Virus genome (UHGV): UHGV-0195737
Strand: one strand, 5' to 3'
Source of the DNA: a virus
Length of the DNA stretch: 58,116 nucleotides
Below the pieces are notes generated by a model, which searched no databases, was not told the DNA's origin, and was given only the letters and a program-made list of their open reading frames with translations. This document shows, in pieces, positions 5,910-51,074 of the stretch; position 1 is the first letter of the stretch; every line of letters starts with the position of its first letter. A program made the translations under genes and the position numbers.

Positions 5910-5952
5910 TGCAATGACTCCATTATGTTAATTAACGGAATAATTCTACCAT

Positions 5953-5968
5953 TTTGTGATCTATGTTA
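5953..5968. promoter_or_regulatory. CRP-like palindrome upstream of lipoprotein gene
   Basis: TGTGA-N6-TTACA about 100 bp upstream of the 6069 start, next to CCATTTTGT/ACAAAATG inverted repeat. Confidence 0.25.
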
Positions 5969-6068
5969 CATTTCTGGTTTATACAAAATGTGTTTGTTGA
6001 TTTACATCAATGTTGTAAAAATGCGGTTTATGGATACTACAACCAACGAAACAACGGAGGGTAAGACA

Positions 6069-6308
6069 ATGAAAGGTTTAAAAAATATCGCTATCGCTGC
6101 AATGGTTGCTGGTCTGGTTGGTTGTGCTGATATGCCAAAACGTGAATGTACAGCAATCTATCAAACTGGCGGTAATGAATATGCGGTTGCAGTCTTTGGC
6201 GTTGCAGATGTTGGCGGTCACAAAATGGTTAAGGCCGGGTATCCGTTCAATTTCCAATGGGTGAGCGTTGACCACTTCAAGAAAACGGATTGCCCGGAAC
6301 TGAATTAA
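6069..6308 (+). CDS. Small lipoprotein (moron; possible superinfection-exclusion lipoprotein)
   Basis: Start moved to internal ATG with SD GGAGGG; signal peptide with lipobox LVGC; opposite strand to flanking tail genes. Confidence 0.5.
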   Translation: MKGLKNIAIAAMVAGLVGCADMPKRECTAIYQTGGNEYAVAVFGVADVGGHKMVKAGYPFNFQWVSVDHFKKTDCPELN

Positions 6309-6904
6309 TCATAGGCGTCGGTTTTAATGGCGGTGATAGCGTTCCCGTGGTTAATGTAGCTGTAAGCCTGCTGCAAGCTACCAACCTGTTTTCCGCGAAT
6401 TCGTGTAGTGCTGCCGTTGTAGTATGCCTCTGTATATATTGTTGCAGAACCCATACCTACAACGGCCCCTAATATCTGAGGCACTACCGCATAAGATCCT
6501 GATAATGTTTGATCGATATAAATCCCCCCGCTCGATCCCGCCGTGCCTACTGTAACAAGGTCGGTTAATATTTTTGATTCATTGGTCAGTACCAATTCCC
6601 CGGAAGCGTTCCAGATAGCCATCCCCCATCTCGGCAGCGATGGCGGGAAGATGCTGAATATATACGCATACCCGTTACCAGGCGGGATCACTACCGTAGA
6701 TGATGATGCGCGATAAGCAAGCCCCGTGGCGGTGTCGTCGGTGTTTTTGATGAATACCATTACAGGCTTGCCGTCGGGTACAGCGATCGTTTGTTGCTGG
6801 CTGGAATTTAAGGCCACCCGCGAATATAAACACATCGGGGTAGAATCCGGCGTCACAAAAATATTGCCATTATCCAGGCGTAAATAAGCGCCAAAAGTAG
6901 CCAT
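6305..6904 (-). CDS. Hypothetical tail-associated protein (MATFG family)
   Basis: 199 aa; shares N-terminal MATFG with the next gene; SD ACGGAG. Confidence 0.4.
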   Translation of the reverse strand: MATFGAYLRLDNGNIFVTPDSTPMCLYSRVALNSSQQQTIAVPDGKPVMVFIKNTDDTATGLAYRASSSTVVIPPGNGYAYIFSIFPPSLPRWGMAIWNASGELVLTNESKILTDLVTVGTAGSSGGIYIDQTLSGSYAVVPQILGAVVGMGSATIYTEAYYNGSTTRIRGKQVGSLQQAYSYINHGNAITAIKTDAYD

Positions 6905-7215
6905 TATGCAATCTCCGTAAAAATAATCAGGTCACATTGTGATGCGGGCCATATATCAGCCCCTACCGTATCCCCTGCTGAGGAAATGGAAACAGTGCCG
7001 CCGGAAATACTAATCTTTCTGCGCGTTGACGATGTTGTACCATAATCAAGCGCCACGCCATAAGATAATTTGCACCCGGTTGGAACGGTAAAAGAATATG
7101 TGCCGGATACTTGCCCGGAAGACAAGGAAATATAGCCAACCACGACGGAAGGTTTGATTCCATAGTTATTAGGATTGCCGTTGGCGTCCCAGGTCGCTAT
7201 GCCGAAAGTAGCCAT
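6904..7215 (-). CDS. Hypothetical tail-associated protein (MATFG family)
   Basis: 103 aa; strong SD AAGGAGGTGA; paralogous N-terminus to 6305-6904. Confidence 0.4.
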   Translation of the reverse strand: MATFGIATWDANGNPNNYGIKPSVVVGYISLSSGQVSGTYSFTVPTGCKLSYGVALDYGTTSSTRRKISISGGTVSISSAGDTVGADIWPASQCDLIIFTEIA

Positions 7216-7265
7216 AATTTCACCTCCTTAATAAAACTGAGGCCGAACAAGTCGGCCCCTTGATT

Positions 7266-10200
7266 TTACCATGATCCGGTAATTCGCCCAATCTGGACGC
7301 GTAACACGCTATTTCCATCTCTGACAGAGATTGTTGTGTTCGTCCATTTCATCGCTCCTTCACCGCTTACTGATCCGTAGTTTTCGAATGTACCGGATTT
7401 ATCCAGCTTCCAGCCAGTACTACCGGAAACATAGTTATTTGACTGGATGTAAGATCCAATTTTCGCGTTAGTGATTGAGGCGTCTTTAATAAACGCTTCG
7501 CGCACATACATTGCACCATTTGTGACATAGAAAGGCGTTGTATATGTGCCGTTTGCCGCTGTCATTAATACAAAGCGGTCAGCAAGGAAAATACATTGCG
7601 ATTGCGTACTCGTACCGCTGCCAGTCAAGCCAAGCGAGATCCCGGAAAAATATTTCATGCCGTTGTTGTCTGCGGCGATCTTAACGCTCCACGTTGCCGA
7701 CATGTCGGTTTCAAGGCCAGCGATGGCGGTTTTATTTTCCTCAATTGATACCGATTGCCCCTCGATTGACGCCGTAATACTTTCAATCTGCGTGGCGGTC
7801 GATTCCTTATAGGTTGTAAACGCTTCGCTCCACTCCGTGATCGACGCCTCGTTTGCTTCCAGCGATGCGCTAATTTCCGCAAACTGAGTAGCATTAGCTT
7901 GTTCATGGGTGGCAAGCGCGGATTGCATTTCGGTAATAGCTGCCGCCACATCGTCGTCTATTTGCGCCTGTAGTTGCTCCAGCTTCTGCGCGGTTGCTTG
8001 TTCATTGGTTGCGATCGTCTGATTAGTTTCAGTGATTGCAGCCTCATTCTCATCAATCTGACTTTGCAGGCTATTAAACTGCGTAGCGTTGGCTTTTTCG
8101 TGGGTAGCGAGTGCTTGCTCCATGTTGCTTATTGCTGACGATATATCACCATCTACTTTAGCCTCAAGGTTGCTAATAGATTCAGATGTGGATGATTCCA
8201 GATCGGTGATCGTCTGGTTAATCTCCGTTATGCTTGCCTGAATATCTTCGTTGACCTGGCTTTCTAATTTTTCGATCGACTGGCTTGTCGAACTTTCAAG
8301 CGTTGCAATGGTTTGTTGCAGTTCGGTTACGTTGGCGCTGATTTCGTCATTGACCTTGCTTTCGAGTGTCGTAAGCGCCTGCGCGGTCGCTTCTTTCTCT
8401 GTAGCGATCACAGTGTCGATGCGCTCAATCTCCGCCTTCGTTTCTGCTTTCTGGTTTTTATACTGTGCCGTCAACGTGGTGCGCGTGCTGGTGTTAGCCA
8501 GTGAGTTATTCATAAGCGCAATAGCTGCGTTTTGCAGGCTGGCGCGTGTCTGGATTAGTTCATTTTCCTGTTCAGTTAACTCGACGCTGATTTCGTTGAT
8601 CTGGCTTTCATGTTCTCCAATTCCATCCTCATTGTTTTTCACGCGTTCTTCCAGGTCTGCGGTCGATTCTTTCAGATCGGTAACAGCCTGGTCAATATCT
8701 ACCGTGGTTTGTTTCAGTTCTTCCACATCGCCCATCAAGCCGCCTGTTACCTCGTCGATGGTTTCTTTAATCATGTCCTGAAATTGCTCACCCTCCATAA
8801 CTTCATTCAGCACGGCATCCGTGATTTCTTCGAAGTTTTCGGACGGCTTACCACTGGCTTCGATAAAGTCAGATACGCCGAAAGCGTTTTTTGTGCGCAC
8901 GTAAACGTAATACGTGTGGCCCGTTGCCATCCCGCCAAAAGTCCACTGATAGCCGCGCCCGGAAAATTGCGCTGATGTTGTTACCAGTGAGAAGTCAGTA
9001 ATCTGGTTTTCTCCAGCGTAATAGAATTCGTAAGTAGTATCAGTCGTTAGCGTGCTGTTGCTGATCGGGTAAACAGTCGCCTGAAAAACACCTGGCACCC
9101 AATTAACACCAGTCGGCGCGGCAGGCGCACCAACAATAAGATCTACCAGTGTTTCCGCTCCCTTCATCCCGGTGTCATTGCGCCCACGAATACCAAGCGA
9201 ATAATTACCGCACTCAAGGCCGAAAAAGTCATACCGGTAATTTTGCGTTTCGTAGCTCGCCACCACGCGCCCGTCGGTGTCATAAATGCGGATCTCAAAG
9301 GTTAATGCGCGGGTAGTGGTTTGAGTTTCCCAGGTGGCGCGGCATTGAACTGTTTCCGATCCAATGTTTATCACTTTCAGGTTTTCGATGTTCGGTACAC
9401 GGAAGTGATTCAGCGTGTCGCTGTTAACCTCAAAGATTGCGCCCTCATCGACAACCGCTTGCTTGTTCGGATCGTGCTGCGCGGCCTCAATGGTGTATAC
9501 GCTGTTATTTTCGGTTTCGGCTACGCTAGTGATTCGACATAAAACGGGTTTTGCCGCTTCGGTTGATACAGCAAATACAGTACCGTTCCGAATCCATGCC
9601 GGGGCCGCCGCTAAGGTGATCTCGTTTCCATTCACTCCGGTGATCTGGTGTTTTTTAAATTTACCATCGCTATCGAGCAAGCTGATGGTGTCGCCTGCCG
9701 TAATGTACTCGCTATCAACCTTATCAACCGTTATCACGTTCCCGTTATTCGCCACGATACGACCGCCTAAACGCGCGCCAGCACGGTTATTATCGAGAAT
9801 CTCGATAATATCCCCTGGTGTAAAGTGAATCGCGTCACGGGCCATTTTAAACGTGAATTTCGACGGCTCGCGTTTTGCTGTTTCTATCAGCCATTTGCCC
9901 GCGCGGTACGCTTGCCCGCGTGATGTACAGCCGAACGCCTCCAGTGTGGTTTCATTGTAACCATCGCGGGCGATTAGCTCATCATCCGCTACATACTCTT
10001 TTGATTGCTCCCAGCCGTTTTCCGGATCAGTCCAGGATACAATCACGGCGTTGTAACATTCCGCACGCGCAATGCTTGAACGGGTGAATGCACCATCAAC
10101 GACGTTTGCGTTTGTGATGGTTGCAATCGGATCTTGCGGTGCATCGAGCATTACAGTAAGTGTTTGACCGTCCCATAACGCAATCCCCCGGAACATTCCG

Positions 10201-11243
10201 GCAATGTTGTCCAGTAAGTCGCGGGCGCTCATTTGCTCCGTAATGTATGCATTAAGCGTCACGCGCGGCTCAAGGCCGCCATAACCATCGTCAACCAACT
10301 GATCGCAGTATTGGGAAAGCGTGTATAATGCGCCGTCGTCAACGTCAATATAACCAGCATGGCGGGCAAGGCCAAAACGCTCGTTTTTAACCAGATACCG
10401 GAAGATCCACGCTGGGTTATTGGTGTACACCTGTTTCATCCCGCCCAGCCATAAACCGGAATAAGTGCGCGTTTCCGGATCGTAGTTATCCGGTACATCA
10501 ACAATCAGGCCACGCATGTGATAAGTGCGTGTCGGCGTGTCGGTATACTGGTCATGATCAATCACCGCGCCCGCTACAGCGGTGTGAGGATAAGACAAGT
10601 TATCGTCGATAATTTCACTGTAGCTATTCCAGCGGGTATCATTCTGCAATAGATCGCCCGTGCTGTCAGGTGTTATGCGGCGAACGCGAATATCGAACGG
10701 TTTTTCGTCCGGCGCATCAATGATGTGTGATTCCAGATATTCACCGCTAATCTTACCCGGACCGATTTGCACGGCCTTAATCGCCGACCAGATTGATGAT
10801 GATGATGGTTTTACATCAATCGCCATAAAAACTGATGTTTCATGCTGGTTTGATTCGCTGTCACTTTCCACCAGTGAATCCACGCCAATATTCAACCGGA
10901 CGCGCGTCACGTTCGGATCTGATACCGTCCTTACCAGTGGCGTGTCATATTTCACCTGCGCGTTAACCATTACCGTAGATTCAATGGCGTTGAAGCCGTT
11001 GATCGGTGACTGGTCGGCAGTACCCGGACGCCAGGCGACGCTAACGCCTGGGATACTGGTATTACCCACGGCATCCGTAACAGGTGTGTCATTAAGCATT
11101 ACGCAGTTTAACGGGGCAGCGGTATTGACCGGACCGTAAATCGGCCCTTCACTCAATATATCCAGAACCCGGTAAAATTGCTTATGAAATAAATTGTCGT
11201 TTATTAATGTTGGTGTTTTTGCTTTACCACCGCCGCCGCCCAT
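7266..11243 (-). CDS. J: Host specificity / tail tip protein J-like
   Basis: N-terminus matches lambda J as recalled (DxxSEGPIxGPV, NDTPV); long central coiled-coil repeat region; position after I. Confidence 0.8.
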   Translation of the reverse strand: MGGGGGKAKTPTLINDNLFHKQFYRVLDILSEGPIYGPVNTAAPLNCVMLNDTPVTDAVGNTSIPGVSVAWRPGTADQSPINGFNAIESTVMVNAQVKYDTPLVRTVSDPNVTRVRLNIGVDSLVESDSESNQHETSVFMAIDVKPSSSSIWSAIKAVQIGPGKISGEYLESHIIDAPDEKPFDIRVRRITPDSTGDLLQNDTRWNSYSEIIDDNLSYPHTAVAGAVIDHDQYTDTPTRTYHMRGLIVDVPDNYDPETRTYSGLWLGGMKQVYTNNPAWIFRYLVKNERFGLARHAGYIDVDDGALYTLSQYCDQLVDDGYGGLEPRVTLNAYITEQMSARDLLDNIAGMFRGIALWDGQTLTVMLDAPQDPIATITNANVVDGAFTRSSIARAECYNAVIVSWTDPENGWEQSKEYVADDELIARDGYNETTLEAFGCTSRGQAYRAGKWLIETAKREPSKFTFKMARDAIHFTPGDIIEILDNNRAGARLGGRIVANNGNVITVDKVDSEYITAGDTISLLDSDGKFKKHQITGVNGNEITLAAAPAWIRNGTVFAVSTEAAKPVLCRITSVAETENNSVYTIEAAQHDPNKQAVVDEGAIFEVNSDTLNHFRVPNIENLKVINIGSETVQCRATWETQTTTRALTFEIRIYDTDGRVVASYETQNYRYDFFGLECGNYSLGIRGRNDTGMKGAETLVDLIVGAPAAPTGVNWVPGVFQATVYPISNSTLTTDTTYEFYYAGENQITDFSLVTTSAQFSGRGYQWTFGGMATGHTYYVYVRTKNAFGVSDFIEASGKPSENFEEITDAVLNEVMEGEQFQDMIKETIDEVTGGLMGDVEELKQTTVDIDQAVTDLKESTADLEERVKNNEDGIGEHESQINEISVELTEQENELIQTRASLQNAAIALMNNSLANTSTRTTLTAQYKNQKAETKAEIERIDTVIATEKEATAQALTTLESKVNDEISANVTELQQTIATLESSTSQSIEKLESQVNEDIQASITEINQTITDLESSTSESISNLEAKVDGDISSAISNMEQALATHEKANATQFNSLQSQIDENEAAITETNQTIATNEQATAQKLEQLQAQIDDDVAAAITEMQSALATHEQANATQFAEISASLEANEASITEWSEAFTTYKESTATQIESITASIEGQSVSIEENKTAIAGLETDMSATWSVKIAADNNGMKYFSGISLGLTGSGTSTQSQCIFLADRFVLMTAANGTYTTPFYVTNGAMYVREAFIKDASITNAKIGSYIQSNNYVSGSTGWKLDKSGTFENYGSVSGEGAMKWTNTTISVRDGNSVLRVQIGRITGSW

Positions 11244-11255
11244 AATAACCCCCTA

Positions 11256-11786
11256 TTAACTTACAACGTCTAAGGCGTCTTTATTGTTGGTTGTATCAAT
11301 ACCCAACGATCCAACGTTCGACCCGATTTTCATTTCGCCAAGTAAAATTGGTACGGGTCGGCCTTGCCCTACTCTGTTTTCTACACTGGTGTAACTGTTG
11401 TTTGTAATGCTGTTATCCTGCGCACTTTCTGCTGATGTTTTCACTTTCATGTTTCGGGCCATAAAAATTGAAAACGCAATACTCGCAACGGAAAGGCCAA
11501 TTAACAGCCAGCCAACCACCCCAATCCCTGCAATACCACCTTCTACCACTGGCGCAACAATAATTGTTGTTCCGTCGGGATATTCATTATTAACGGCGGC
11601 TGGCGCGGTTTTCGCGTCGTAATCCTTTCCGGCAATCCGTAACCGTAATGGCGTACTTAAAAACGCCCGTTTAAATTCCTGATTCTGCGCGGTCAATAAG
11701 CGAAGCCCCTGCGCAGGTGTATTGACGTTTAAACACACCTTGCTGAAATATCTTCGAAGATTGCCCGTAAATCTAAATTTGAGCAT
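11256..11786 (-). CDS. I: Tail assembly protein I
   Basis: 176 aa, hydrophobic glycine-rich centre, overlaps K 3' end as in lambda; position between K and J. Confidence 0.55.
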   Translation of the reverse strand: MLKFRFTGNLRRYFSKVCLNVNTPAQGLRLLTAQNQEFKRAFLSTPLRLRIAGKDYDAKTAPAAVNNEYPDGTTIIVAPVVEGGIAGIGVVGWLLIGLSVASIAFSIFMARNMKVKTSAESAQDNSITNNSYTSVENRVGQGRPVPILLGEMKIGSNVGSLGIDTTNNKDALDVVS

Positions 11787-12460
11787 TTATCAGATCTCCA
11801 TATTGAATGCGTTTGTCGAACATATGCGGGCCGCATTTGCTCGCGGCGGCTCAATAGTCCGGCATGGTCATGATGCAAAACCGTGTTATCACCCAGGTAA
11901 ACCATCGCGTGACATGGGTCCGCGCCTTTAAATGGTTGCCTGATAATCACATCACCCGGCTGGATGTTTTGCGCGTCAACCTGGAAAAACCCGTTTAGCG
12001 GCAAGTTTTTTAAATACAGGTTTTCACCGCGCAACCACCAGCCATCAAGGCGCTCGAAGTCCGGTAGATCCACACCACAAAGGTGATAGGCATCCCGGAA
12101 AAGCGTGTAACAATCCGTTACGCCGTGCACAAACTTACGGCCTAACAGGTGCGCCACCGGGCGAAATCTTTTAATCCTGCCGCCGGAACACAAAAACCAG
12201 GGTAGCCCGGAAATAACTTGCTGTTGTCGATCCCGTGCCGACAATACCGGAATATCATCAACGTGGGAGTGGAAAACGGCGGTTATAACGCCCAATTCGT
12301 CCGCTTTGATGTAATCGTCCGGCGAAATCTTAAAGCTGTTGTACGGCGTTTCAGACACGTTAGCGCACGAAAAAAAATATTCATCATCTATCACCAGTCC
12401 GCATACTTCCTCAAGCGGGTGTGCGGCGGCATAACGCAACATTTTGTCTTCCATCGCCAT
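11729..12460 (-). CDS. K: Tail assembly protein K (MPN/JAMM plus NlpC/P60-like)
   Basis: HSHV JAMM-like motif and DCYTL cysteine motif; position between L and I. Confidence 0.7.
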   Translation of the reverse strand: MAMEDKMLRYAAAHPLEEVCGLVIDDEYFFSCANVSETPYNSFKISPDDYIKADELGVITAVFHSHVDDIPVLSARDRQQQVISGLPWFLCSGGRIKRFRPVAHLLGRKFVHGVTDCYTLFRDAYHLCGVDLPDFERLDGWWLRGENLYLKNLPLNGFFQVDAQNIQPGDVIIRQPFKGADPCHAMVYLGDNTVLHHDHAGLLSRREQMRPAYVRQTHSIWRSDKCSNLDLRAIFEDISARCV

Positions 12461-13167: not shown

Positions 13168-13299
13168 TTTCTCACCTTTCGATTTTGTGATCTGCGTCAC
13201 GCTAAATCGCGCCAAAATGGATTGATCGCGATTTTTACAATATGTATATTTTACTCAAACGAAGGGGAAGTTAACAAAACGGCATAAAAGGGGTACGGG

Positions 13300-15188: not shown

Positions 15189-15216
15189 ACTTCCCCCTAT
15201 AAGTTACATTTTGTGT

Positions 15217-15245: not shown

Positions 15246-15356
15246 GAGATATTCATCACAAGAATTATAACCAGTTTACAAAATGGCTTCACACAGGACG
15301 CAACAAGATGTATATAGAAAGCAAGAAGAAAGCAGTACCAACAAAGGAGGCCCAAG

Positions 15357-15524
15357 ATGAAAGGCAACGATAAACACTACGCAGTCGTAATGCTTAACGA
15401 CGCATTCGAACAAGTAGAAGTAGCGATTGTTAAAGGCTTCGATGATGCGTTCAAAATGGGCCAGTTCTACATGAACGTGAAAGCAAACGAATATCGGGAT
15501 TTCTACCTGAAAGCGGTCAACTAA
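15357..15524 (+). CDS. Hypothetical small protein (moron cassette c)
   Basis: 55-aa ORF with strong SD AAGGAGG; not in ORF track. Confidence 0.45.
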   Translation: MKGNDKHYAVVMLNDAFEQVEVAIVKGFDDAFKMGQFYMNVKANEYRDFYLKAVN

Positions 15525-15542
15525 GGATGATGGGGGTGGGCT

Positions 15543-15797
15543 ATGAAACTGGTAGCGATTGATAAAAACCTGAAAGCACAGAAAAACGCACAGGACCGGA
15601 TCATCAAAAAAGGTAAGGCTTTATTAAACGCTTTCCTGAGAAAAGAAGCCTACCCCAAAAAATTACGCGATGGATACGGCTACAAAATGGATATTAACCC
15701 CGACTGGCGGCTTTACAGTCAGGACTTAAAGGTTTGGTTAATTGTTGAACACCACAAATACAATGAATTATGCGGCGTGCGCGGTTGCCATAAGTGA
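15543..15797 (+). CDS. Hypothetical basic protein (moron cassette c)
   Basis: 84 aa, Lys-rich, C-terminal HHKYNELCGVRGCHK; SD GGGGGTGGG. Confidence 0.45.
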   Translation: MKLVAIDKNLKAQKNAQDRIIKKGKALLNAFLRKEAYPKKLRDGYGYKMDINPDWRLYSQDLKVWLIVEHHKYNELCGVRGCHK

Positions 15798-18462: not shown

Positions 18463-18500
18463 GATTTAACCTCATACAAAATGTGATCTGTGCCTCTATT

Positions 18501-18542
18501 TTATACAAAATGGCTTTACTTTACCGACTCCATTTTGTATAA
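18501..18542. promoter_or_regulatory. Perfect 13-bp inverted repeat (putative regulator binding site)
   Basis: TTATACAAAATGG-N16-CCATTTTGTATAA upstream of plus-strand cassette d. Confidence 0.4.
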
Positions 18543-18593
18543 GGAAGTCAAAGGAAAAGATAGTTAAACAAAACAATTAAGTGGGGGTGTTTT

Positions 18594-31891: not shown

Positions 31892-32100
31892 AATTTTTTC
31901 ATCTCCAGGTTGTGCCTTTCCTGCTCCCGCTTATTCTCCTGTCGCTTGTAATACCAGTTAACCGCGAAAGTGCCTATCGTGCACCCGATACCAACTATCA
32001 CGGCTATGTCATTCAGGGATAAACCGCCAATTATGGTTGTCAGAATACCAGCTACATAGCTTGCGGCCTCCCTTGTTCGCGTAATTAACGTGGCGATCAT
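31888..32100 (-). CDS. Holin (pinholin-like, class II)
   Basis: 70 aa, two TM helices, charged C-terminus; overlaps endolysin start. Confidence 0.65.
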
Positions 32101-32110
32101 TTATTCCCCC

Positions 32111-32140
32111 AACAAAGCAAAAACCCGGCGCGGGGCCGGG
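32111..32140 (-). terminator. Late-leader terminator (tR'-like)
   Basis: CCCGGCCCCGCGCCGGG stem followed by TTTTTGCTTTGTT, just upstream of holin. Confidence 0.55.
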
Positions 32141-32379
32141 TGAATACAATTTCGCATTGTTAGGAAATATTTTAATCCGTTTGTTTAACCTATACAAACA
32201 CGGCTTATAGCTACAAATCACCAACCTTGCGCCAGGTCCGCTTCGATGCCTTTGATGGTGTTTACATATTCGCGTTTCATTTTCTTATCTCCCCTTCCGT
32301 CTTTCCTTGACTTATATATAACAAAACGGCACTGCCGGAACAATGCCATTTTGTAAACTTTGCGGGGTAGATCACGCTT
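32141..32379 (-). promoter_or_regulatory. Putative late promoter / Q-utilisation region
   Basis: Only sizeable non-coding gap between Q and holin; contains CCATTTTGT motif and a 20-aa SD-preceded mini-ORF. Confidence 0.3.
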
Positions 32380-38474: not shown

Positions 38475-38556
38475 GATTTATTCTCCTTCTGTCAGGTGAT
38501 ATATTTCCGCATTTCAGCGGGGCCAGGTTTTTAAAGAGCATTTCGTTTGATTGCAG

Positions 38557-38635
38557 TATACAAAATGGATACGCCCGGACAAGATGAAAAGCGCCATTAT
38601 GTGACGCTCATCACACAATGACGCCATTTTGTAAA
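38557..38635. promoter_or_regulatory. Intergenic element A with CRP-consensus palindrome
   Basis: TACAAAATGG...TGTGACGCTCATCACA...CCATTTTGTA; ~80% identical to element at 42417-42475. Confidence 0.4.
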
Positions 38636-42379: not shown

Positions 42380-42416
42380 TTTCCCGCCCTCCGTTCTGTA
42401 TACCTTTCGATTTAAG

Positions 42417-42475
42417 TTTACAAAACGGATACAGCAGGACAAGACAAAATGTATATTTATGTGATCGCAATCACG
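42417..42475. promoter_or_regulatory. Intergenic element B (homologue of element A)
   Basis: TACAAAACGGATAC...TGTGATCGCAATCACG; near-CRP palindrome. Confidence 0.4.
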
Positions 42476-44687: not shown

Positions 44688-45107
44688 CTAAAAAGGAATA
44701 TCGTCGTCGAAGTCCATCGGCGGAGGATTGTTCCCGTTATTATTCTGCTGCTGCGGCGGCGCTTTCTGCTGCTGGCCTTGCTGCTGGCCCTGCTGGTTAA
44801 CGTTCATGAATTCGAATTCACTGACCGCTACTTCTACAGCCGTTCCCTTCGTGCCGTCGTTCCGGTCATATTGCCGAACATCCAGGCGACCGCTTACCAC
44901 TATCTTTCCGCCCTTGCGGATATGCGGCGCTAATTTTTCCGCACGCTCACCAAATACCAGGCAAGTGATCCACATTGTCCGCTTATTATCGCCGTAGCCA
45001 TTCGTTACAGCTAACGAGAAACTACCAATCGCTTTTCCGTTTTGCGTGTAGCGAATTTCCATGTCGTTTCCGATATTTCCGCCCAGCGTGATTGAATTTA
45101 AACTCAT
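44688..45107 (-). CDS. ssb: Single-stranded DNA-binding protein
   Basis: OB-fold-sized N-terminus, Gln/Gly-rich linker, canonical acidic tail DFDDDIPF. Confidence 0.85.
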   Translation of the reverse strand: MSLNSITLGGNIGNDMEIRYTQNGKAIGSFSLAVTNGYGDNKRTMWITCLVFGERAEKLAPHIRKGGKIVVSGRLDVRQYDRNDGTKGTAVEVAVSEFEFMNVNQQGQQQGQQQKAPPQQQNNNGNNPPPMDFDDDIPF

Positions 45108-45748
45108 TAATTAATCTCCCCGTTAAGCTCTTTTAAGCGAATGTCATAAACGTCTTTCGCTTTTTGTTGTTGTTCTGAATCTTTAGGCAGTAGCTTCCAG
45201 CACTTGCCGAAGATCTCGCGCAATTTGTTCGCGTCCGGCGCTTTCGCTGCCGCATCACAGAAACGTGCTAACACTTCATCAGGATTTGGTGGCGCTTTCT
45301 GCTGCTGCGGTTGTTGTTTTGGCGGGTTTTTCTGCTGGCGTGGCTGTTGATTTGTCTGTTTAGCATAAGCATCAGTATCAGCGTCTTTCGCGTCGTCTAT
45401 GCAGAATAAACCGTTCAAGGCATATTTCCGCGCGTAACTTGATGTTGCTCCTGTTAGCTGGCTTGCATCCATACCGCGCTTGTTTTCTTCCTCCCTTGCG
45501 TAAGCAGTTACCGCTATTGCGTCCTCGCCGTCGCTTAATGTCGCAGTGGCTTTAACGTAATAACGCTCACCAATCAGGATAATTTCATCATTCAGCGTTA
45601 GTGTGACATTTTGAAGTAGCGGTTTAACCGCTTCCAGAATATCCTCCGCTGAACGATAGCTATAACCCCCGAAGTTATTACGCTGATTCTTAGGCGCGTT
45701 AAGCGTCTGCTGAATCGTCCACAGTTTCTTGTGTAGCTCTGTTTTCAC
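45107..45748 (-). CDS. erf: Erf-family single-strand annealing protein
   Basis: GGYSYRSAEDI-type ERF signature; Gln/Pro-rich linker; GTG start with SD AAGGAG. Confidence 0.65.
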   Translation of the reverse strand: MKTELHKKLWTIQQTLNAPKNQRNNFGGYSYRSAEDILEAVKPLLQNVTLTLNDEIILIGERYYVKATATLSDGEDAIAVTAYAREEENKRGMDASQLTGATSSYARKYALNGLFCIDDAKDADTDAYAKQTNQQPRQQKNPPKQQPQQQKAPPNPDEVLARFCDAAAKAPDANKLREIFGKCWKLLPKDSEQQQKAKDVYDIRLKELNGEIN

Positions 45749-45858
45749 CCTTTAATCTCCTTCGCTGTTAATACCACATACAAGGCTTTATTCGCGGCGC
45801 TCCACATTTCGGCATCGTGAAGCATTTCCGCTACCGCCAGTTTGAATTGAAGCGCCTG
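45736..45858 (-). CDS. Hypothetical small protein (40 aa)
   Basis: Strong SD AGGAGGTGA; not in track. Confidence 0.35.
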
Positions 45859-45897
45859 GATAACCATAATGTCACCTCCTGTTGTTTACGTTATGTA

Positions 45898-46188
45898 TTA
45901 ATGGTATCGGACTTTATCGAGGGGTTTTTCCCCAAGCTGGCGCGGCTGCGTTGCGTGAAAGTAGTTGCCGCTTTCATTTTCCTGATACCATTTTGTTGCT
46001 CCCTTGCGACGTCCTTTAACGCTATTTGGTTCGCATTTTTCCTCATTTGCAAAGCGAATAGCTTTTTCCACTCTATCAACCTTCTGTATGTGCGGGCCTT
46101 CATCTTGCTCTGCTGCCCGTTTCATCCGTCGGCGGGCGCGGGCGTTAAGTTTGCTCTCACAGTTACCGTAAGTAATTTTCGCATTCAT
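45898..46188 (-). CDS. N: N-like transcription antiterminator
   Basis: Arg-rich motif ARARRRMKRAAEQ near N-terminus; resembles P22 gp24 as recalled; nut-like site upstream. Confidence 0.5.
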   Translation of the reverse strand: MNAKITYGNCESKLNARARRRMKRAAEQDEGPHIQKVDRVEKAIRFANEEKCEPNSVKGRRKGATKWYQENESGNYFHATQPRQLGEKPLDKVRYH

Positions 46189-46218
46189 AATCTTATTTCC
46201 TTAGTTGAAATTTATGTC

Positions 46219-46252
46219 TGCACATTTCAGTGCAACCGGATTGTTAAAGAGC
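46219..46252 (-). promoter_or_regulatory. nutL-like site (boxA + boxB hairpin)
   Basis: Minus strand reads GCTCTTTAACAAT (rrn/lambda boxA-like), then hairpin TGCAC-TGAAAT-GTGCA, about 30 nt before N start. Confidence 0.45.
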
Positions 46253-46417
46253 ATTTTCAAACTTCCTTTTTTCTACTGCCTTCCCTCCTTTGACTCGCAA
46301 TATACGCCCCGTGATATGTTGAGTCAATCCATTTTGTATACTTTTTTAAAATATTTTCTATCTCATTGATATTCAAACAATAAAAACTGTTTTCGGTTTA
46401 CGTTTTGGTGCTTTCCG

Positions 46418-46444
46418 GGCAAAGAAAAGCCGCCATCCGGCGGC
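46418..46444 (-). terminator. Terminator after repressor gene
   Basis: GCCGCC-GGAT-GGCGGC stem followed by TTTTCTTT on minus strand. Confidence 0.55.
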
Positions 46445-46450
46445 TAATGT

Positions 46451-47098
46451 TTATGGCAGGTTTACGATCTTTGCATCCACCACCACGCCAATAATTTTTG
46501 ATTCAGGGTTTAGCGGGATTGGTGGGTACAGCGGATTAAGCGAACGTAAAAGCCTTTGACCTCCATCAATGATTAACTGTTTAAACGTCGGCGTTTGCCC
46601 TTCCTCCAGTTGGGCTATAACCAGTTTGCCGTCAATAGCTGGCGCGTGCGGATCGACAAGTATCATCGTCCCTGCCGGGATACTTAATCCCTGCGGTGCG
46701 TTCATTGACTCACCTTTTGCGACCAGCCAATAACTATCATCCGAACAAATCACGCTCGTGTTAACGTGTGGTAGTAATGCGCGTTTTGCTTCTTCCATGT
46801 AGTTTCCTGCGTCTTTCCAGTCAATAACCGGATAACGTCCCACGTCGAGCGGCGGCGCTCCCGGCAACGTATTTGAAACTGAATCATCGATAACCATCCC
46901 GTCATGAGTGACCGTAAACTGCCGACGACCAAGCGCCCGCATAATCCGCGCAATATCTTCAAGATTTGGCTCGCGGCGACCATTCAGCCAGTGAGATAAG
47001 CCGCCTTTTGTGATCCCCATGAGATCCGCCAATGAATCCTGGCTCATGCCTTGCGCCCGCATGAGTTGTTTTGCTAAGTCATACCATTTTGTTTTCAT
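46451..47098 (-). CDS. CI-like repressor (HTH plus LexA-type S24 peptidase domain)
   Basis: N-terminal HTH (QDSLADLMGITKGGLSHWLNG); C-terminal AKGESM serine motif and downstream Lys. Confidence 0.75.
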   Translation of the reverse strand: MKTKWYDLAKQLMRAQGMSQDSLADLMGITKGGLSHWLNGRREPNLEDIARIMRALGRRQFTVTHDGMVIDDSVSNTLPGAPPLDVGRYPVIDWKDAGNYMEEAKRALLPHVNTSVICSDDSYWLVAKGESMNAPQGLSIPAGTMILVDPHAPAIDGKLVIAQLEEGQTPTFKQLIIDGGQRLLRSLNPLYPPIPLNPESKIIGVVVDAKIVNLP

Positions 47099-47126
47099 AT
47101 CGCTACCCTATCGCCCTAAAAAGTTT

Positions 47127-47222
47127 GATGCAAGTCACAAAATGTATTTTTCAAGCCTTGACCGAAAAACACCATTCTGTAAACTTGCAGACAAGGTAAA
47201 GCCGGACTTGCAAAGACGCAAG
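47127..47222. promoter_or_regulatory. Operator/divergent promoter region
   Basis: Inverted repeats TCAAGcCTTGA, CTTGcagaCAAG, CTTGCaaagacGCAAG, plus TGCAAGTCA/GACTTGCA pair. Confidence 0.4.
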
Positions 47223-47265
47223 AAAAAAGATGAGGGAATAGCACAAAAAGGCGCATACCTTAAAA

Positions 47266-47298
47266 GCTCTTTAAAAACCTGGTGTCGCTGCGAAGCGA
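47266..47298 (+). promoter_or_regulatory. nutR-like site (boxA + boxB hairpin)
   Basis: GCTCTTTAA then 10 nt then TCGCT-GCGA-AGCGA hairpin, upstream of the first plus-strand gene. Confidence 0.4.
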
Positions 47299-47405
47299 AA
47301 AACAAATATCACGCAACGGCGGGATCTGTTGAGCGGTCAATCACTGCTACCTAATGCTAATGGGATACCCGCCCGCGCGTTCATTTTAACCATAGGAGAA
47401 ACACA

Positions 47406-47660
47406 ATGAGTATGCACATGATGAATGAGGCTTGGAAAGTGGAACTTAACAGCCCGATTCAAAAACTTGTCTTAATGGCTCTGGCTGAAAAGGCAGATAA
47501 TCGCCGCCACGCCAGGGTATCACACCAAGAAATCGCAAAAATGTGTGAAATTCCTGTAAGTACGGTGATACTTGCTATCAACGGATTAACACACAAAGGA
47601 TTTATTTGTAACCCTTACCCGGTAAATGACGTTTACCTGGTAATGCTGCCGGAGGAATAG
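47406..47660 (+). CDS. Winged-helix regulatory protein (Cro/CII position)
   Basis: 84 aa; HTH-like segment SHQEIAKMCEIPVSTVILAINGL; first gene of rightward operon. Confidence 0.45.
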   Translation: MSMHMMNEAWKVELNSPIQKLVLMALAEKADNRRHARVSHQEIAKMCEIPVSTVILAINGLTHKGFICNPYPVNDVYLVMLPEE

Positions 47661-47662
47661 AA

Positions 47663-48775
47663 ATGAAGTGGTTTAAGCATGATAGCGATGCGAACCGCGA
47701 TGAAAAACTTCAAAACGTTTTGCTTGATTATGGCCTGGAAGGATACGGGCTTTATTGGTATTGCATCGAGTTAATAGCCTACGAAGTAGATCAACATAAT
47801 CTGACATTCGAACTAAAACACGATGCAAGAATCATTGCCCGGAACGTAGGATCAAGTCCGAAACGTGTAGAAGAAATGATGAGATACTTCATCGAAGTTG
47901 GCTTGTTCGACTGCTCACATGGCGTTGTAAGATGCCTGTCGTTAGCAAAAAGACTTGATCAATCAATGGCTTCGTCAAAAAGCGAATTTAGAGAGGCAAT
48001 TAAAAGGCTAAACGTCAAAAAAAATAAAAAGTTAGATAATCCTTTAGTGGAAGTAAATAATTCACCAGATACAGAAAAAGAAAAACCATGGCACAACCAT
48101 GATGCAGCCATGGCACAACCATGGCACAACCATGGATTAGAAGTAGAAGTAGAAGAAGAAATAGAAACAGAAGAAGAAAAGAAAAATATAAAAAGAAAAG
48201 AAGTCAATCAGGACGGTGACTTTCAGATAAGCGAATCTGCATTGCGTTGCCTGGCTTTCTACAACGAAAAGGCAGGATGCAAATGTCGTGATACTAAGCC
48301 ATTCATCGAACTACTGACAGAAACAAAAACACGTAAGGCATACACGGAGGATGAGATCACATTAGTAATTGAGTGGGCTTTGACGCAATGGCGTAGCCGT
48401 GGTGGAGTGCCTAAGCCTGTTAACATTTGCCGGGTAACTAAGTTTGATGGGTATCTGGCTGATGCTGAACAATGGCGCAAGCTGTCAGCTACTGTAAACG
48501 CTGCCGACGTGGTGGAAGCATTTAACAGCACGTTTGACGGCCTGTTACCACCTGCCGAACTGGATCGGGATATTGAACGTAAGATCCATTCGCTATCTGA
48601 CTACCTGAAAGACAAAAGCGTTGACAGCTTTATTGCTTACTTCCAGAAATTTAAAGCTGATGCGCCGAACTTCTATTTCGGTGAGAATGAAAGCGGCTGG
48701 CTGGCTGATATAGATTTTCTGTTGAAGCCGGAAACGCTCCGCAAGACGCGTAACTTCCAACATATACCATCATGA
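47663..48775 (+). CDS. Replication initiation protein (replisome organiser-like)
   Basis: 370 aa; N-terminal phage replisome-organiser-like region; iterons plus AT-rich tract inside the gene; upstream of DnaB. Confidence 0.6.
   Translation: MKWFKHDSDANRDEKLQNVLLDYGLEGYGLYWYCIELIAYEVDQHNLTFELKHDARIIARNVGSSPKRVEEMMRYFIEVGLFDCSHGVVRCLSLAKRLDQSMASSKSEFREAIKRLNVKKNKKLDNPLVEVNNSPDTEKEKPWHNHDAAMAQPWHNHGLEVEVEEEIETEEEKKNIKRKEVNQDGDFQISESALRCLAFYNEKAGCKCRDTKPFIELLTETKTRKAYTEDEITLVIEWALTQWRSRGGVPKPVNICRVTKFDGYLADAEQWRKLSATVNAADVVEAFNSTFDGLLPPAELDRDIERKIHSLSDYLKDKSVDSFIAYFQKFKADAPNFYFGENESGWLADIDFLLKPETLRKTRNFQHIPS
48086..48200. repeat. Putative origin: iterons plus AT/purine-rich tract
   Basis: CCATGGCACAA x3 plus degenerate copy, then GAAGTAGAAG...AAAAATATAAAAAG. 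Confidence 0.45.
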
Positions 48776-48899
48776 ATTACCAAAAATCCAAAATTACCCA
48801 CAAAACAAGCTCACCAGCGAGCTAAATCGCATTGGGTGCTACACTTGCTTACCTTTTTGCGATTAGCTCGTCAGAGAGCGTTACAGAGAGGATTTTAAA

Positions 48900-49001
48900 A
48901 TGGACGGTAAACACGTTTTCGCCCTGGCTTTTGCCATCGCTGCGGCAATCGCTGTTAACGTCGCCTTGTTCGGCGGTTTGTTCCTTCTAGTCAATCCATA
49001 A
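48900..49001 (+). CDS. Putative hydrophobic microprotein (33 aa)
   Basis: MDGKHVFALAFAIAAAIAVNVALFGGLFLLVNP; SD GAGAGG. Confidence 0.3.
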   Translation: MDGKHVFALAFAIAAAIAVNVALFGGLFLLVNP

Positions 49002-49133
49002 CCTACCTACCAGTCTGTAAATCGAAAATTAGCCACCTGATAGCGTTTCTGACGCAATAAGACACTGCAACCTGTGCAAACGGGTTACGCGGTGGGATTT
49101 TTGCGTTGTAGCGCGTTTTACGGAGAAATTACA

Positions 49134-49904
49134 ATGTCTGAATTAATGGTTTTTGATAACGTTAAAATGAATAGTATTGAAATTTCAGAGTTGGTTGGTA
49201 AGCGTCATGATAACGTAAAACGCACTATCGAGACGCTTGCTAATAATGGGATTATCCGACTTCCTCAAATTGAGGTTTTCGGAAAAATCAATAACTTAGG
49301 ATTGATTCGTGGCGTGGACGCTTACGTTTTTGAAGGGGAGGAAGGCAAGCGAGATAGTATTATTGTGGTCGCACAGCTTTGCCCTGAACTTACGGCGCGG
49401 ATCGTTGACCGCTGGCAGGAACTTGAAAACGCAGTCCGGCAAAATGCTGTTCCAAATTACGGTAACACACAGATCAGTAATGTTCTTGCTTTTGCTGAAA
49501 CGGCGGGCCGAATGCTGAATATGAGTAATTCAGGTAAGTTAGGTATGCTACAGAAGATTGAGAAGGAATATAATATTCCTCCTATCCTTCCGCATTACGC
49601 TATTGACGCTCCTTCTGATGCTGTGGACGGATCAAGCCGCGTGACCAAATCACTGACAGCATTGTTAGAAGAAAATAACGTTGGCATGACTGCGCGTGAA
49701 GTTTACCCAATCCTTGAACGCAAAGGCATTGTCGATCGCAAGTATCGTAAAGCAAAATGCGGAGAAAAAAGATTCTGGAATGTAACTGTGTATGGTCTGC
49801 GATACGGAAAAAATATAACCAACCCATCTAATCAGAGAGAAACACAGCCGCATTTTTATGAATCAAGATTTAAAGAGTTATTGAATATTATTTTTTCTGA
49901 ATGA
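49134..49904 (+). CDS. Rha-family phage regulatory protein
   Basis: N-terminal SELVGKRHDNVKRTIETL matches Rha family signature; SD GGAGAA. Confidence 0.6.
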   Translation: MSELMVFDNVKMNSIEISELVGKRHDNVKRTIETLANNGIIRLPQIEVFGKINNLGLIRGVDAYVFEGEEGKRDSIIVVAQLCPELTARIVDRWQELENAVRQNAVPNYGNTQISNVLAFAETAGRMLNMSNSGKLGMLQKIEKEYNIPPILPHYAIDAPSDAVDGSSRVTKSLTALLEENNVGMTAREVYPILERKGIVDRKYRKAKCGEKRFWNVTVYGLRYGKNITNPSNQRETQPHFYESRFKELLNIIFSE

Positions 49905-49937
49905 GTATACATTCCGTAAACCGGAGGAAATAACGTT

Positions 49938-51056
49938 ATGTCACAGAGAAAGATCAGCGATGAGCAACTGATCGCTGAGTACAACAAGGGGAAGACTTAC
50001 AAGCAAATAGCCGAAGAATATGGAATGGCAAAACGCAACGTCGAACGCCTGGGCGCACGGCTGGCTAAGCGCGGTTTAATATCCACGCGCCGCGCTCCTG
50101 GCTTCGGTGTTAACGGTGAATCATTGCTCGTTGATAAGGATGGCAATGTAATCATGCGCTGGATTAAAACGGCCCGTGACCGTGAGGAAATGGAAAGGCT
50201 AACGCAAGCGGCTTGCGACGCATTCACGGAAGAAATACCACGCGCGGAGGTAGTGCCAGTGCCGGAAATTGATTTCCAAAAAAGCCTGGCCCTTTATCCG
50301 GTATTCGATCTGCATATCGGGGCGCTTGCACATAAAGCTGAATGCGGAGAAAGCTACGACACCGGGATCGCCGAACGCGTGCTAAATGACTTCTTCGACT
50401 ACGCGGTAGGCGCTGCACCAACGTCTGAGAAGGCTGTTTTGCTTCTCGGAGGCGATCTACTTCACTCTGACGGGATGATCCCGGTTACACCGACAAGCGG
50501 GCATATTCTTGATCAGGATAGCCGCTACGCAAAACTTGTTTATGTGGCGATCCGGTCGGTCCGGCGTGCGGTGGGGAAAATGTTGTTAAACCATAAGGAC
50601 GTCGAGATACAAGTGTTATCCGGCAATCACGATCAGTCGGGGATGATCTGGCTACGTGCGGCGCTGGCGGCTTTTTACGAGGATGAACCGCGCGTAACGG
50701 TTGATGTATCACCTGCTATCGTCCACCACACGCAGTACGGTAAAACATTCCTTGCTTATCATCACGGGCACACCATCAAAAAACCCGAAAATTTGTTAGC
50801 TGCCTGTGTTTCTGACTGGCGGGAGGACTTCGGCAAGTCGGCGGCGGTTTACGCTCACACGGGGCATCTGCATCATCAATCTGTCGTAGAAACATCATTA
50901 GGGATCGTTGAGCACCACGGCACGTTAGCGGGTAAAGACGCTTATTCAACGAATGGCGGTTGGCGGTCGCGGCGGCTGGCGGCGGTGATAATTTACAGCC
51001 CGGATTATGGGGAAATCGGGCGCTTTGTTTATTACCCTGAATATTCCATTTTGTAA
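49938..51056 (+). CDS. HTH - metallophosphoesterase fusion protein
   Basis: N-terminal HTH (YKQIAEEYGMAKRNVERL); calcineurin-like phosphoesterase motifs DLH, GGDLLH, GNHD, HHGH, GHLHH. Confidence 0.55.
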   Translation: MSQRKISDEQLIAEYNKGKTYKQIAEEYGMAKRNVERLGARLAKRGLISTRRAPGFGVNGESLLVDKDGNVIMRWIKTARDREEMERLTQAACDAFTEEIPRAEVVPVPEIDFQKSLALYPVFDLHIGALAHKAECGESYDTGIAERVLNDFFDYAVGAAPTSEKAVLLLGGDLLHSDGMIPVTPTSGHILDQDSRYAKLVYVAIRSVRRAVGKMLLNHKDVEIQVLSGNHDQSGMIWLRAALAAFYEDEPRVTVDVSPAIVHHTQYGKTFLAYHHGHTIKKPENLLAACVSDWREDFGKSAAVYAHTGHLHHQSVVETSLGIVEHHGTLAGKDAYSTNGGWRSRRLAAVIIYSPDYGEIGRFVYYPEYSIL

Positions 51057-51074
51057 ACCGGAGGCGACGCCATA

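Follow-up and report, generated by a model that had tools for sequence, protein, structure and literature searches.

Temperate siphoviruses of the mEp021/mEpimmI group carry a repressor resembling lambda CI (Rep021), an N-like antiterminator with three nut sites, and Q (PMC11893012). One immunity type is found across all 48 genomes of the group, the repressors are about 96% similar, and Rep021 blocks all of the mEpimmI phages tested (PMC11893012). In the same paper, which is the sole genomic paper on the group, the operator sequences are stated as unknown (PMC11893012). The stretch of DNA analysed here, UHGV virus genome UHGV-0195737 (58,116 nt in its whole length, hereafter the window), is an E. 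coli prophage of this group and is 80-86% identical to mEp010, mEp021, mEp044, mEp554, and MagusPhagus. An earlier note on the window described a recurring decamer, CCATTTTGTA/TACAAAATGG, at its regulatory junctions and suggested that either a phage regulator, of which this would be the operator, or a host factor could act there. The analysis supports the first suggestion: with a probability of about 75%, the decamer is the core of the operator of the prophage's own lambda-CI-type repressor, an assignment made by sequence comparison. Searching the literature for the decamer and for the 13-mers described below returned only primers and unrelated matches. The operator is therefore not previously defined, either in such sequence-based searches or in the group's own paper (PMC11893012).

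Frequency and conservation of the decamer

A total of 9 exact copies of CCATTTTGTA/TACAAAATGG were identified in the window, against 0.20 expected, and none of 100 dinucleotide shuffles reached 9. With up to one mismatch there are 22 copies (6.2 expected). CCATTTTGTA is the top 10-mer of the window when GC-rich coding repeats are set aside. Eight of the nine exact copies are in the approximately 9.7% of the window outside long open reading frames (ORFs), and the ninth forms the final 10 nt of an ORF, immediately upstream of dnaB. The frequency far above background claimed in the earlier note thus holds when set against shuffled controls, the positional bias is seen as well, and the coordinates are right to within a few bases: the sites are at 5949(+)/5982(-), 15206(+)/15277(-), 18504(-)/18530(+), 32346(+), 38559(-), 38624(+), 42419(-), 46329(+), 47172(+), and 51046(+). 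The pair at 18.5 kb is indeed a perfect 13 bp inverted repeat (TTATACAAAATGG...CCATTTTGTATAA).

Exact copies are similarly frequent in the complete relatives, with 7 in mEp021, 5 in mEp010, and 9 in MagusPhagus, where about 0.2 are expected in each. A degenerate core, [AC]C[AG]TT[TCA]TGT, occurs 32 times in the window (7.3 expected) and 25-32 times in the four complete family genomes (approximately 7 expected). The core is not confined to the immunity region, with 28 of the 32 window matches outside the immunity zone at 46250-47250. Altogether, about 29 candidate sites form 11 clusters from 5.9 to 51 kb, some of them among the structural genes. In every relative examined from the mEp021/mEpimmI group, the motif is at the same junctions.

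Conservation was assessed in a family sample chosen without reference to the motif, in which 44 loci were found via CI and 45 via a tail protein. Among the family loci, motif positions C2, T4, T5, T7, G8, and T9 do not change; positions 1 (C/A), 3 (A/G), and 6 (T/C/A) vary. At A1 and B, two internal early promoters, the 8 nt that separate the motif from the -35 occur in 29-30 versions (30 at A1 and 29 at B), and the sequence TCC(A/G)TTTTGTA(A/T)AC is essentially invariant. The motif is likewise nearly invariant at the tail-module junctions. A pattern search for the back-to-back pair matched family contigs only and found 16 bp between the arms in all of 19 loci, with variable spacer sequence, in a search that demanded intact arms and is biased to conserved copies.

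Each strong site takes up one of two registers with respect to promoter hexamers. Positions 9-14 of each strong site are -10-like (TAAACT, TATACT, or TATAAA), and in one register the motif runs straight into such a hexamer (CCATTTTG followed by TAAACT), with a good -35 hexamer 16 nt upstream at three sites (47172, 38559, and 42419). In a second register, a promoter on the opposite strand starts 1-2 nt past the motif, and 7 of 12 sites have such a promoter with a score above the 95th percentile of random positions. The motif could on these grounds be a shared promoter element, a -10 with a T-rich spacer, that is read by host sigma-70, was spread by duplication of promoter modules, and has no dedicated binder. 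The pattern of conservation is, however, different from that of a sigma-70 promoter, where -12T, -11A, and -7T would be kept with a -35 at 16-18 nt. The invariant positions are -19 to -12, and the conserved CCATTTTG occupies -20 to -13, a stretch not read by sigma-70. The T at -7 is not conserved, and most sites have no -35. At element B the hexamer drifts (TAAACT, TAAGCC, TGAACT), and at the 13213 site CCATTTTG is kept and the hexamer is lost. In addition, the same sequence is a palindromic operator in the unrelated phages described below. The motif is under selection as a unit, and its explanation as a sigma-70 element is very unlikely. A related reading of TACAAAATGG upstream of the -35 as an UP element was dropped, as sites that overlap only a -10 are equally conserved.

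Mosaic breaks between relatives often fall within about 5-30 nt of a motif, as at the lipoprotein, cassette-d, and A junctions. This would fit linker or boundary sequences that aid the exchange of cassettes through microhomology recombination. Cassette ends are where regulatory regions lie anyway, however, and 10-13 bp is very short for homologous exchange. Such exchange would also leave unexplained the fixed 24-25 bp pairing of sites, their -35/-10 register, and their location in other phages. It could at most be a side effect, and as an account of the motif it is the least probable of those considered.

The GC-rich repeats of the window include a 12-mer, GCCCGCGCGGCG, that occurs 6 times with up to one mismatch (0.6 expected). 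All of its copies are in coding regions, on both strands (5455, 24358, 41088, 51723, 52401, and 55978).

A CI subfamily and its probable operator

The window CI has Pfam HTH_3 (2.7e-13) and Peptidase_S24 (7.4e-20) domains, and its best relative of solved structure is lambda CI (3bdn, E 1.5e-20). It is the only ORF of the window to carry the helix signature TKGxLSHW. Searches with CI and with its N-terminal domain identified homologs in phages that have no DNA similarity to the window, being Enterobacter phage ENT1-like phages and the IMG/VR loci L130-L176, L077-L079, and L194. The N-terminal domains of these homologs are 54-61% identical to that of the window CI. Their recognition helices, ITKGAVSHWLNARREP, VSKGAVGHWMTGKREP, or MTQGGLGHWLNGRREP, are near-identical to the ITKGGLSHWLNGRREP of the window, and the helix of P0007 is identical to it. 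A short-query protein search returned only truncated family copies.

In the unrelated phages, the approximately 100 bp between cI and the divergent cro contain three ATACA-N3-TGTAT sequences, mostly at about -81, -48, and -22 from the cI ATG. In the P0012-type phages, the leftward promoter, which lies downstream of the cI operon, has two more operators 25 bp apart. Most of the loci have 4-6 sites each, against 0.2-0.5 expected. The consensus of these operators is ATAC(A/G)TTTTGTAT, and the exact CCATTTTGTAT is present in one phage. The full site is a 13 bp pseudo-palindrome, ATACA-TTT-TGTAT, of which the decamer is the core. The window decamer can be parsed as (A/C)CA-TTT-TGTA, with its dyad at the middle T and the C2-A3 pair as the mirror of T7-G8; more symmetric variants of the site read ACATTTTGT. 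The left arm of the family site is usually degenerate, (T/G)CCATTTTGTA(T/A), and the site therefore appeared asymmetric. A model of an asymmetric 10-14-mer with a symmetric partner half failed, its dyad having been wrongly set at GTA-TAC where the operators of the unrelated phages put it at the middle TTT. The reading of the L077-L079 repeats as GTATAC-centred palindromes was discarded once the dyad was located. A covariation test that treated L077-L079 as family members with a different CI was also invalid, these being unrelated phages that are useful only as carriers of the homologous domain.

A position weight matrix (PWM) was built from 57 operators of the unrelated phages, with no family sequence included. 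It has 11 matches in the window at a score of at least 12, where 2.7 are expected, and the top matches are at 42442, 47135, 13235, 38558, and 5981. The promoter frame is shared as well. At the leftward early promoter (pL) of the unrelated phages, ATACATTTTGTAT runs into TGCGCT and, after 12 nt, ATACATTTTG runs into TATATT, such that the first T of the -35 is the last base of the second operator of the left operator region (OL2) and the -10 is provided by OL1. The N-operon promoter of the window has the same frame (ATACAAAATGGAT into TGACT, 12 nt, then TCACGGGGCG into TATATT), with a strong OL2 and a degenerate OL1, and so does element B (ATACATTTTGTC into TTGTCC ... CCGTTTTG into TAAACT). In the right operator region (OR), the distances of OR1 and OR2 from the cI ATG are nearly alike in the window and in the unrelated phages. 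A unit of two operators with centres 24-25 bp apart is present at six places in the window: the N-operon promoter, element B, 13.3 kb, cassette c, cassette d, and the late leader. The motif is also the sole significant element common to both early-promoter regions. As these are the places where an immunity repressor must act, its sharing there supports a CI operator.

In lambda-like switches Cro shares the CI operators, and a lytic-phase partner might therefore be expected here. Another phage protein could bind instead of, or besides, CI. One candidate is the HTH_36 winged-helix protein (47406-47660), encoded by the first gene of the rightward operon and brought forward as a possible binder in the earlier note; another is the protein encoded at 52540-53103, whose MagusPhagus homolog is annotated MarR-like. 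The unrelated phages have HTH_3 Cro proteins whose helix is of the type found in their own CI. The HTH_36 protein that occupies the Cro position in the window is not similar to these Cro proteins and thus has no counterpart in the other phages that use the site, whereas the CI domain is shared. No second ORF in the window has the recognition-helix signature. With the CI domain shared, the Cro-position protein unrelated, and the helix signature unique, CI is the sole DNA-binding protein common to the users of the site. A different phage protein in its place is unlikely, although such a protein would be partly compatible with a CI operator if the two shared their sites.

The distribution of the site in the unrelated phages also bears on a host factor. 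The motif is invariant in a family that infects only E. coli, and sequences like the CRP consensus near three of the junctions (see below) make a host input plausible, so that the motif might be the site of an E. coli DNA-binding protein tying prophage promoters to host physiology. In the unrelated phages, however, the site accompanies one type of CI helix, occurs at OR/OL only, and is rarer than expected elsewhere, which is the behaviour of an immunity operator. In 27 such loci there are 70 matches to the degenerate core in the OR-OL zone, and outside of it 20, against 38 expected. To our knowledge, none of the E. coli consensuses for CRP, IHF, Fis, OmpR, PhoP, CpxR, TyrR, MarA/SoxS, the LacI family, or DnaA, nor those of the alternative sigma factors (sigma-32, sigma-54, sigma-28, and sigma-S), fits the motif. 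The host-factor suggestion of the earlier note thus finds no support and is quite unlikely.

With the core in the OR-OL zone of the unrelated phages and at 25-32 copies in family genomes where about 7 are expected, it would appear that the mEpimmI family has multiplied a conventional operator genome-wide. Among L131-L176, the core outside the OR-OL zone is at about half its expected frequency, which hints at selection against stray repressor sites where immunity regions are conventional.

Some observations weigh against a CI operator at all of these places. The link to CI itself comes from homology and canonical position. Strong family sites can score poorly with the PWM (47172, -1.4; 32346, -2.5; 51046, 4.2) because of a C at position 1 and degenerate left arms, and the preference of the family repressor must therefore differ somewhat from that of its relatives. 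The loci of the unrelated phages span about 10 kb on each side of cI, and confinement to OR/OL holds for that span. The OL1-like site at 46302-46314 came from inspection of the sequence at the expected distance and is thus weak evidence. A strict promoter scanner called no canonical promoter at the late leader, cassette-d, or lipoprotein junctions, so some of the units may not be promoters. The inferred lipoprotein promoter of the window is not conserved in mEp010 or MagusPhagus. Lastly, the sites at 49907 and 51044 are inside an operon with no obvious promoter.

Candidate operators along the prophage

The window is in reversed orientation relative to the mEp021 record and is flanked on its right by E. 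coli chromosomal sequence near yddH. It is 100% identical to a 54,578 bp IMG/VR contig over the parts fetched. Its genome plan is one long leftward transcription unit, broken by opposite-strand cassettes with terminators at their bounds. The products of these cassettes are a Cor-type exclusion lipoprotein, a ParE-like toxin, and a KilAC/ANT-domain protein. Four of the promoters described below were called by an independent scanner (rightward early, 47158-47185; N-operon, 46327-46299; A1, 38582-38555; 13.3 kb, 13222-13250), which also called the terminators t1 and t4.

The immunity region has two clear operators and no clear OR3. The gene for the proposed binder, the 215-residue CI-like immunity repressor, is at 46451..47098 on the minus strand. 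The OR1-like operator CACCATTCTGTAA (47170..47182, plus strand) overlaps the spacer and -10 of the rightward early promoter TTGACC-N16-TAAACT (47158..47185, plus strand; scanner 9/12, score 11.8). This promoter faces the winged-helix and replication genes, with a nut site at 47266. Across the family, position 6 of this operator is C, T, or A, and the rest is invariant. The OR2-like operator ATACATTTTGTGA (47135..47147, minus strand) scores 18.7 with the non-family PWM and is as far from the cI ATG as OR2 is in the unrelated phages. Its centre is at about -43 of a candidate cI promoter, TTGCAT-N17-TAGGGT (47105..47133, minus strand), resembling the lambda promoter for repressor maintenance (PRM); both of its hexamers are conserved in relatives, and it would yield a leaderless cI mRNA. 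A first guess for this promoter, TTTTTC-N17-TACATT, taken from the 47172 site, was replaced, as TTGCAT-N17-TAGGGT keeps the OR2-to-ATG distance of the relatives. An uncertain third sequence, TACCATTTTGTTT (47082..47094, plus strand), lies over the cI start (codons K-T-K-W) and is possibly an OR3 substitute; being in coding sequence, its conservation is not interpretable. The first cI codons (M-K-T-K-W-Y-D, 47082-47098) spell the operator-like CCATTTTGTT on the opposite strand, and the N-terminal arm MKTKWYDLAK is identical in the L077/L079 CI, which is only 38% identical overall. The operator-like sequence over the cI start may be an autoregulatory site or a coding coincidence.

Two other repeats were seen in this region (47129-47135, 47183-47189, 47206-47222). 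The heptamer ACTTGCA occurs three times, each directly after an operator or a -10 hexamer. A 16 bp palindrome, CTTGCAAAGACGCAAG, is at about +15 to +30 of the rightward transcript, with arms that are conserved and a centre that varies in relatives; it may be the site of a second regulator or a leader RNA hairpin.

On the leftward side, the OL2-like operator ATCCATTTTGTAT (46327..46339, plus strand; PWM 13.8) has as its last base the first T of the -35 of the minus-strand N-operon promoter TTGACT-N17-TATATT (46299..46327; scanner 10/12, score 14.2). The degenerate half-operator in the OL1 position, ATACGCCCCGTGA (46302..46314, plus strand), is over the -10, 25 bp from OL2. The promoter serves the operon of the N-like antiterminator, with a nut boxA downstream at 46244-46252. 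A single operator-like site, TTACGTTATGTAT (45886..45898, plus strand; PWM 11.7), is at the 3' end of the N-like gene, and mEp021 has a copy of ACATTTTGTA at the matching place.

Elements A and B are further along the leftward unit. At B, the upstream operator ATACATTTTGTCT (42442..42454, minus strand) is the best PWM match in the window (22.8) and abuts the -35 of the internal early promoter TTGTCC-N16-TAAACT (42415..42442, minus strand; score 10.0). Its partner 24 bp away, ATCCGTTTTGTAA (42418..42430, minus strand), is over the spacer and -10 and is invariant, and a weak third site, CTCCGTTCTGTAT (42389..42401, plus strand), is a core match. At A, the operator of promoter A1 is again ATCCATTTTGTAT (38558..38570, minus strand; PWM 16.7); it is also invariant, and lies over the spacer and -10 of TTGTCC-N16-TATACT (38555..38582, minus strand; scanner 9/12). 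The A2 operator CGCCATTTTGTAA (38622..38634, plus strand) is immediately upstream of the t4 terminator hairpin, and a weak site, CGCCATTATGTGA (38592..38604, plus strand), is within that hairpin (38590-38625). Element A as a whole (38531-38634) is compound: an operator comes first, next the strong hairpin of the terminator (minus strand, 38590-38625), then A1 and the operator over it, and last a nut boxA (GCTCTTTAA, 38531-38539). In effect, the terminator has directly behind it a promoter for restarting transcription, one that would be under the control of the repressor and has an antitermination site to itself. Further boxA copies are at 47266 (plus strand) and 46244 (minus strand).

Palindromes that resemble the CRP consensus, TGTGA-N6-TCAC(A/G), are found at 13186-13201, 38600-38615, and 42460-42475, three copies against an estimated 0.2 or so by chance. 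Each is centred about 60 bp upstream of a start site, those of the 13.3 kb cassette, A1, and B promoters respectively. Within the family their arms are conserved and their centres variable, and the copy at A is part of the 16 bp stem of terminator t4.

In the late leader, the upstream operator TGCCATTTTGTAA (32344..32356, plus strand) ends 2 nt before the -35 of a candidate late promoter on the minus strand, TTGTTC-N17-TATATA (32315..32343), which the strict scanner did not call, its -10 being without the final T. The downstream site TGCCGTTTTGTTA (32319..32331, minus strand) is in the promoter spacer, 25 bp from its partner. After the promoter there is a leader of about 185 nt, a terminator at 32124-32140, and the holin ATG at 32100. 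The leader (32101-32343) resembles the lambda pR'-6S-tR' arrangement and has a possible 20-codon ORF (32280-32218) with a good ribosome-binding site. The late promoter region of mEp010 and MagusPhagus is about 2 kb upstream of the holin gene, with approximately eight small genes between; mEp021 does not have this region.

The remaining two-operator units are in the tail module, where they accompany opposite-strand cassettes. At the cassette-d junction, AGCCATTTTGTAT (18503..18515, minus strand; conserved family-wide) abuts the -35 of the candidate plus-strand cassette promoter TTTACT-N17-TATAAG (18515..18543), which was not called by the strict scanner, and CTCCATTTTGTAT (18528..18540, plus strand), 25 bp away, is over its spacer and -10. 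A third site, TCACATTTTGTAT (18474..18486, minus strand), is 29 bp from this pair and immediately upstream of the start of the tape-measure gene. At cassette c, AGCCATTTTGTAA (15276..15288, minus strand) abuts the -35 of the candidate plus-strand promoter TTCACA-N17-TATATA (15288..15316; score 7.6), which would drive the ParE-like toxin cassette. The OL1-position site ATACATCTTGTTG (15301..15313, minus strand; PWM 10.5; conserved) is over the -10, 25 bp from its partner. An additional site near the start of a minor-tail gene, TTACATTTTGTGT (15204..15216, plus strand; PWM 12.9), is conserved in most of the family loci, mEp021 and mEp010 being without it. Cassette c (15357-15797), which runs backwards within the tail operon, has a 55-residue ORF followed by that of a ParE-like toxin (PF24732), the two probably forming a toxin-antitoxin pair, and an exact copy of the motif (15681-15690) is within the toxin ORF.

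At 13.3 kb, the OL2-type operator ATCCATTTTGGCG (13210..13222, minus strand) abuts the -35 TTGATC and has the same 12-mer, AAAATGGATTGA, as the N-operon promoter. The OL1-type operator ATACATATTGTAA (13235..13247, minus strand; PWM 18.4), 25 bp from it and invariant in the family, is over the -10. The promoter, TTGATC-N17-TATATT (13222..13250, plus strand; scanner 9/12), precedes a cassette with the KilAC/ANT-domain gene (Pfam ANT). Downstream of it, TGCCGTTTTGTTA is present again (13272..13284, minus strand). This 13-mer is identical to that at 32319-32331, at two otherwise unrelated junctions, and both copies are operator variants with a weak left arm.

The lipoprotein junction is between the tail-fibre gene and the gene for the Cor-like exclusion lipoprotein (PHROG Cor). 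It has an operator, ACACATTTTGTAT (5981..5993, minus strand; PWM 16.5), that is conserved in all 4 genomes, a second site, TACCATTTTGTGA (5947..5959, plus strand), and a weak core match, CTCCATTATGTTA (5918..5930, plus strand). Activation of the Cor lipoprotein promoter by CI was considered and then downgraded, as the promoter is not conserved in mEp010, MagusPhagus, or mEp021. The tail-fibre ORF beside this junction (1932-5909) and that of a J-like central fibre (7266-11243), both on the minus strand, each encode exactly 1325 residues. They are not paralogs, with a best BLASTP identity of 26% over a low-complexity Ala/Thr-rich stretch, and their equal length is coincidental.

Two single sites are in the replication operon. 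One, TTCCATTTTGTAA (51044..51056, plus strand), is directly upstream of the dnaB ribosome-binding site and is deleted from mEp010, which has the insertion of an HNH endonuclease gene there. The other, ATACATTCCGTAA (49907..49919, plus strand; PWM 15.3), is upstream of the next gene of the operon. Each is followed by the same 12-mer, GTAAACCGGAGG (49916-49927 and 51053-51064), with an ATG about 8-9 nt further on. This looks like a duplicated module of operator and ribosome-binding site before two consecutive genes.

Proposed mode of action and comparison with known systems

The basic unit of the proposed system would be two operators 24-25 bp apart. The upstream operator, centred near -41/-42, reaches as far as the first T of the -35, and the downstream one runs into the -10 hexamer (...TTTTG-TAWAYT). 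With repressor dimers on such a unit, probably bound cooperatively as those of lambda are, RNA polymerase would be kept off the promoter. For related repressors, this unit would be at OR and OL only. In the mEp021/mEpimmI family, the unit or single operators would be on the rightward early promoter (pR), the N-operon promoter, A, B, the late leader, the three opposite-strand cassette promoters of the tail module, and the junction between the tail-fibre and lipoprotein genes, as well as at two places within the replication operon. Essentially every prophage promoter would then be silenced by one repressor in a lysogen. The OR2-like site near -43 of the cI promoter would be placed to activate cI, as at lambda PRM. 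The assignment of repression or activation at each promoter is read from the placement of the sites. The proposed targets make sense for a repressor, as all are promoters or candidate promoters that would otherwise fire in the prophage. A genome-wide silencer with this pairing logic is somewhat less probable than the CI operator itself. More tentative still, and on balance doubtful, is the fuller proposal that combines genome-wide silencing, cassettes included, with activation from -42 of cI and possibly of lysogenic-conversion genes, and with the multiplicity of operators as the explanation for a single immunity group.

The earlier note also proposed that the motif coordinates moron expression with lysogeny. 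It is plausible that accessory genes are coupled to lysogeny, since full two-operator units are present at three cassette promoters of the tail module; the position of the operators suggests which way such control would go. Published assays of the lipoprotein were done with plasmids, not lysogens. If the proposal holds, co-evolution of the repressor with dozens of operators would account for all 48 family members sharing one immunity type where lambdoid phages have many. Dispersed operators would thus give a mechanistic reason for the puzzling single immunity group and would predict which accessory genes are tied to the lysogenic state. The site described here provides a concrete and testable operator for the immunity repressor of a prevalent and little-studied group of human-gut coliphages. 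It would also make a lambda-type CI a genome-wide regulator with sites in the structural region, a use so far tied to P1 C1 and L5 gp71.

The likeness to lambda OR/OL is extensive. The window has a true CI homolog, with HTH_3 and S24 domains and 3bdn as its match, encoded adjacent to the sites. Pseudo-palindromic operators are in the cI/rightward intergenic region over divergent promoters (47135-47147 and 47170-47182), one over the lytic -10 and the other centred at about -42/-43 of the repressor's own promoter. A second cluster is at the leftward N-type promoter (46327-46339 and its degenerate partner 25 bp away). Adjacent operators in lambda are 23-24 bp apart, and those in the window 24-25 bp. 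The window operator differs in being 13 bp and of another sequence, there are two clear operators in the immunity region rather than three, and there are approximately 25 further candidate sites at internal early promoters, the late leader, the replication operon, and the tail module.

There is also a likeness to the ENT1-like phages and L130-L176, L077-L079, and L194, with which the window shares the operator consensus, a near-identical helix, similar distances from OR1 and OR2 to the ATG, and the OL2-OL1 frame at pL. Those phages, however, have their operators at OR/OL only, together with an HTH_3 Cro of the same helix type. The window family has no such Cro and has multiplied the operator.

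In its distribution the system resembles the stoperators of mycobacteriophage L5 (Cluster A), where one repressor, gp71, has dozens of short intergenic sites across the genome, including the structural arm, and where the site sequence embeds a promoter hexamer. The L5 sites, which are truly asymmetric and have one orientation relative to transcription, block elongation, and the repressor that binds them is a monomer whose sole domain is a helix-turn-helix (HTH). Those of the window are instead degenerate palindromes in both orientations, paired at 24-25 bp and mostly in a -35/-10 register, and only those at 49907 and 51044 resemble intra-operon sites. The window repressor, with HTH_3 and S24 domains, is not an HTH-only gp71 homolog. 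Likewise, P1 C1 has many scattered operators that overlap promoters, with one repressor for many separate operons. The P1 C1 operator is 17 bp and asymmetric, the fold of C1 is unrelated, and the P1 prophage is a plasmid and has tripartite immunity. The system of the window therefore works like lambda OR/OL, except for the confinement of the operators, and has a distribution like that of the P1 C1 operators and the L5 stoperators without the defining features of either.

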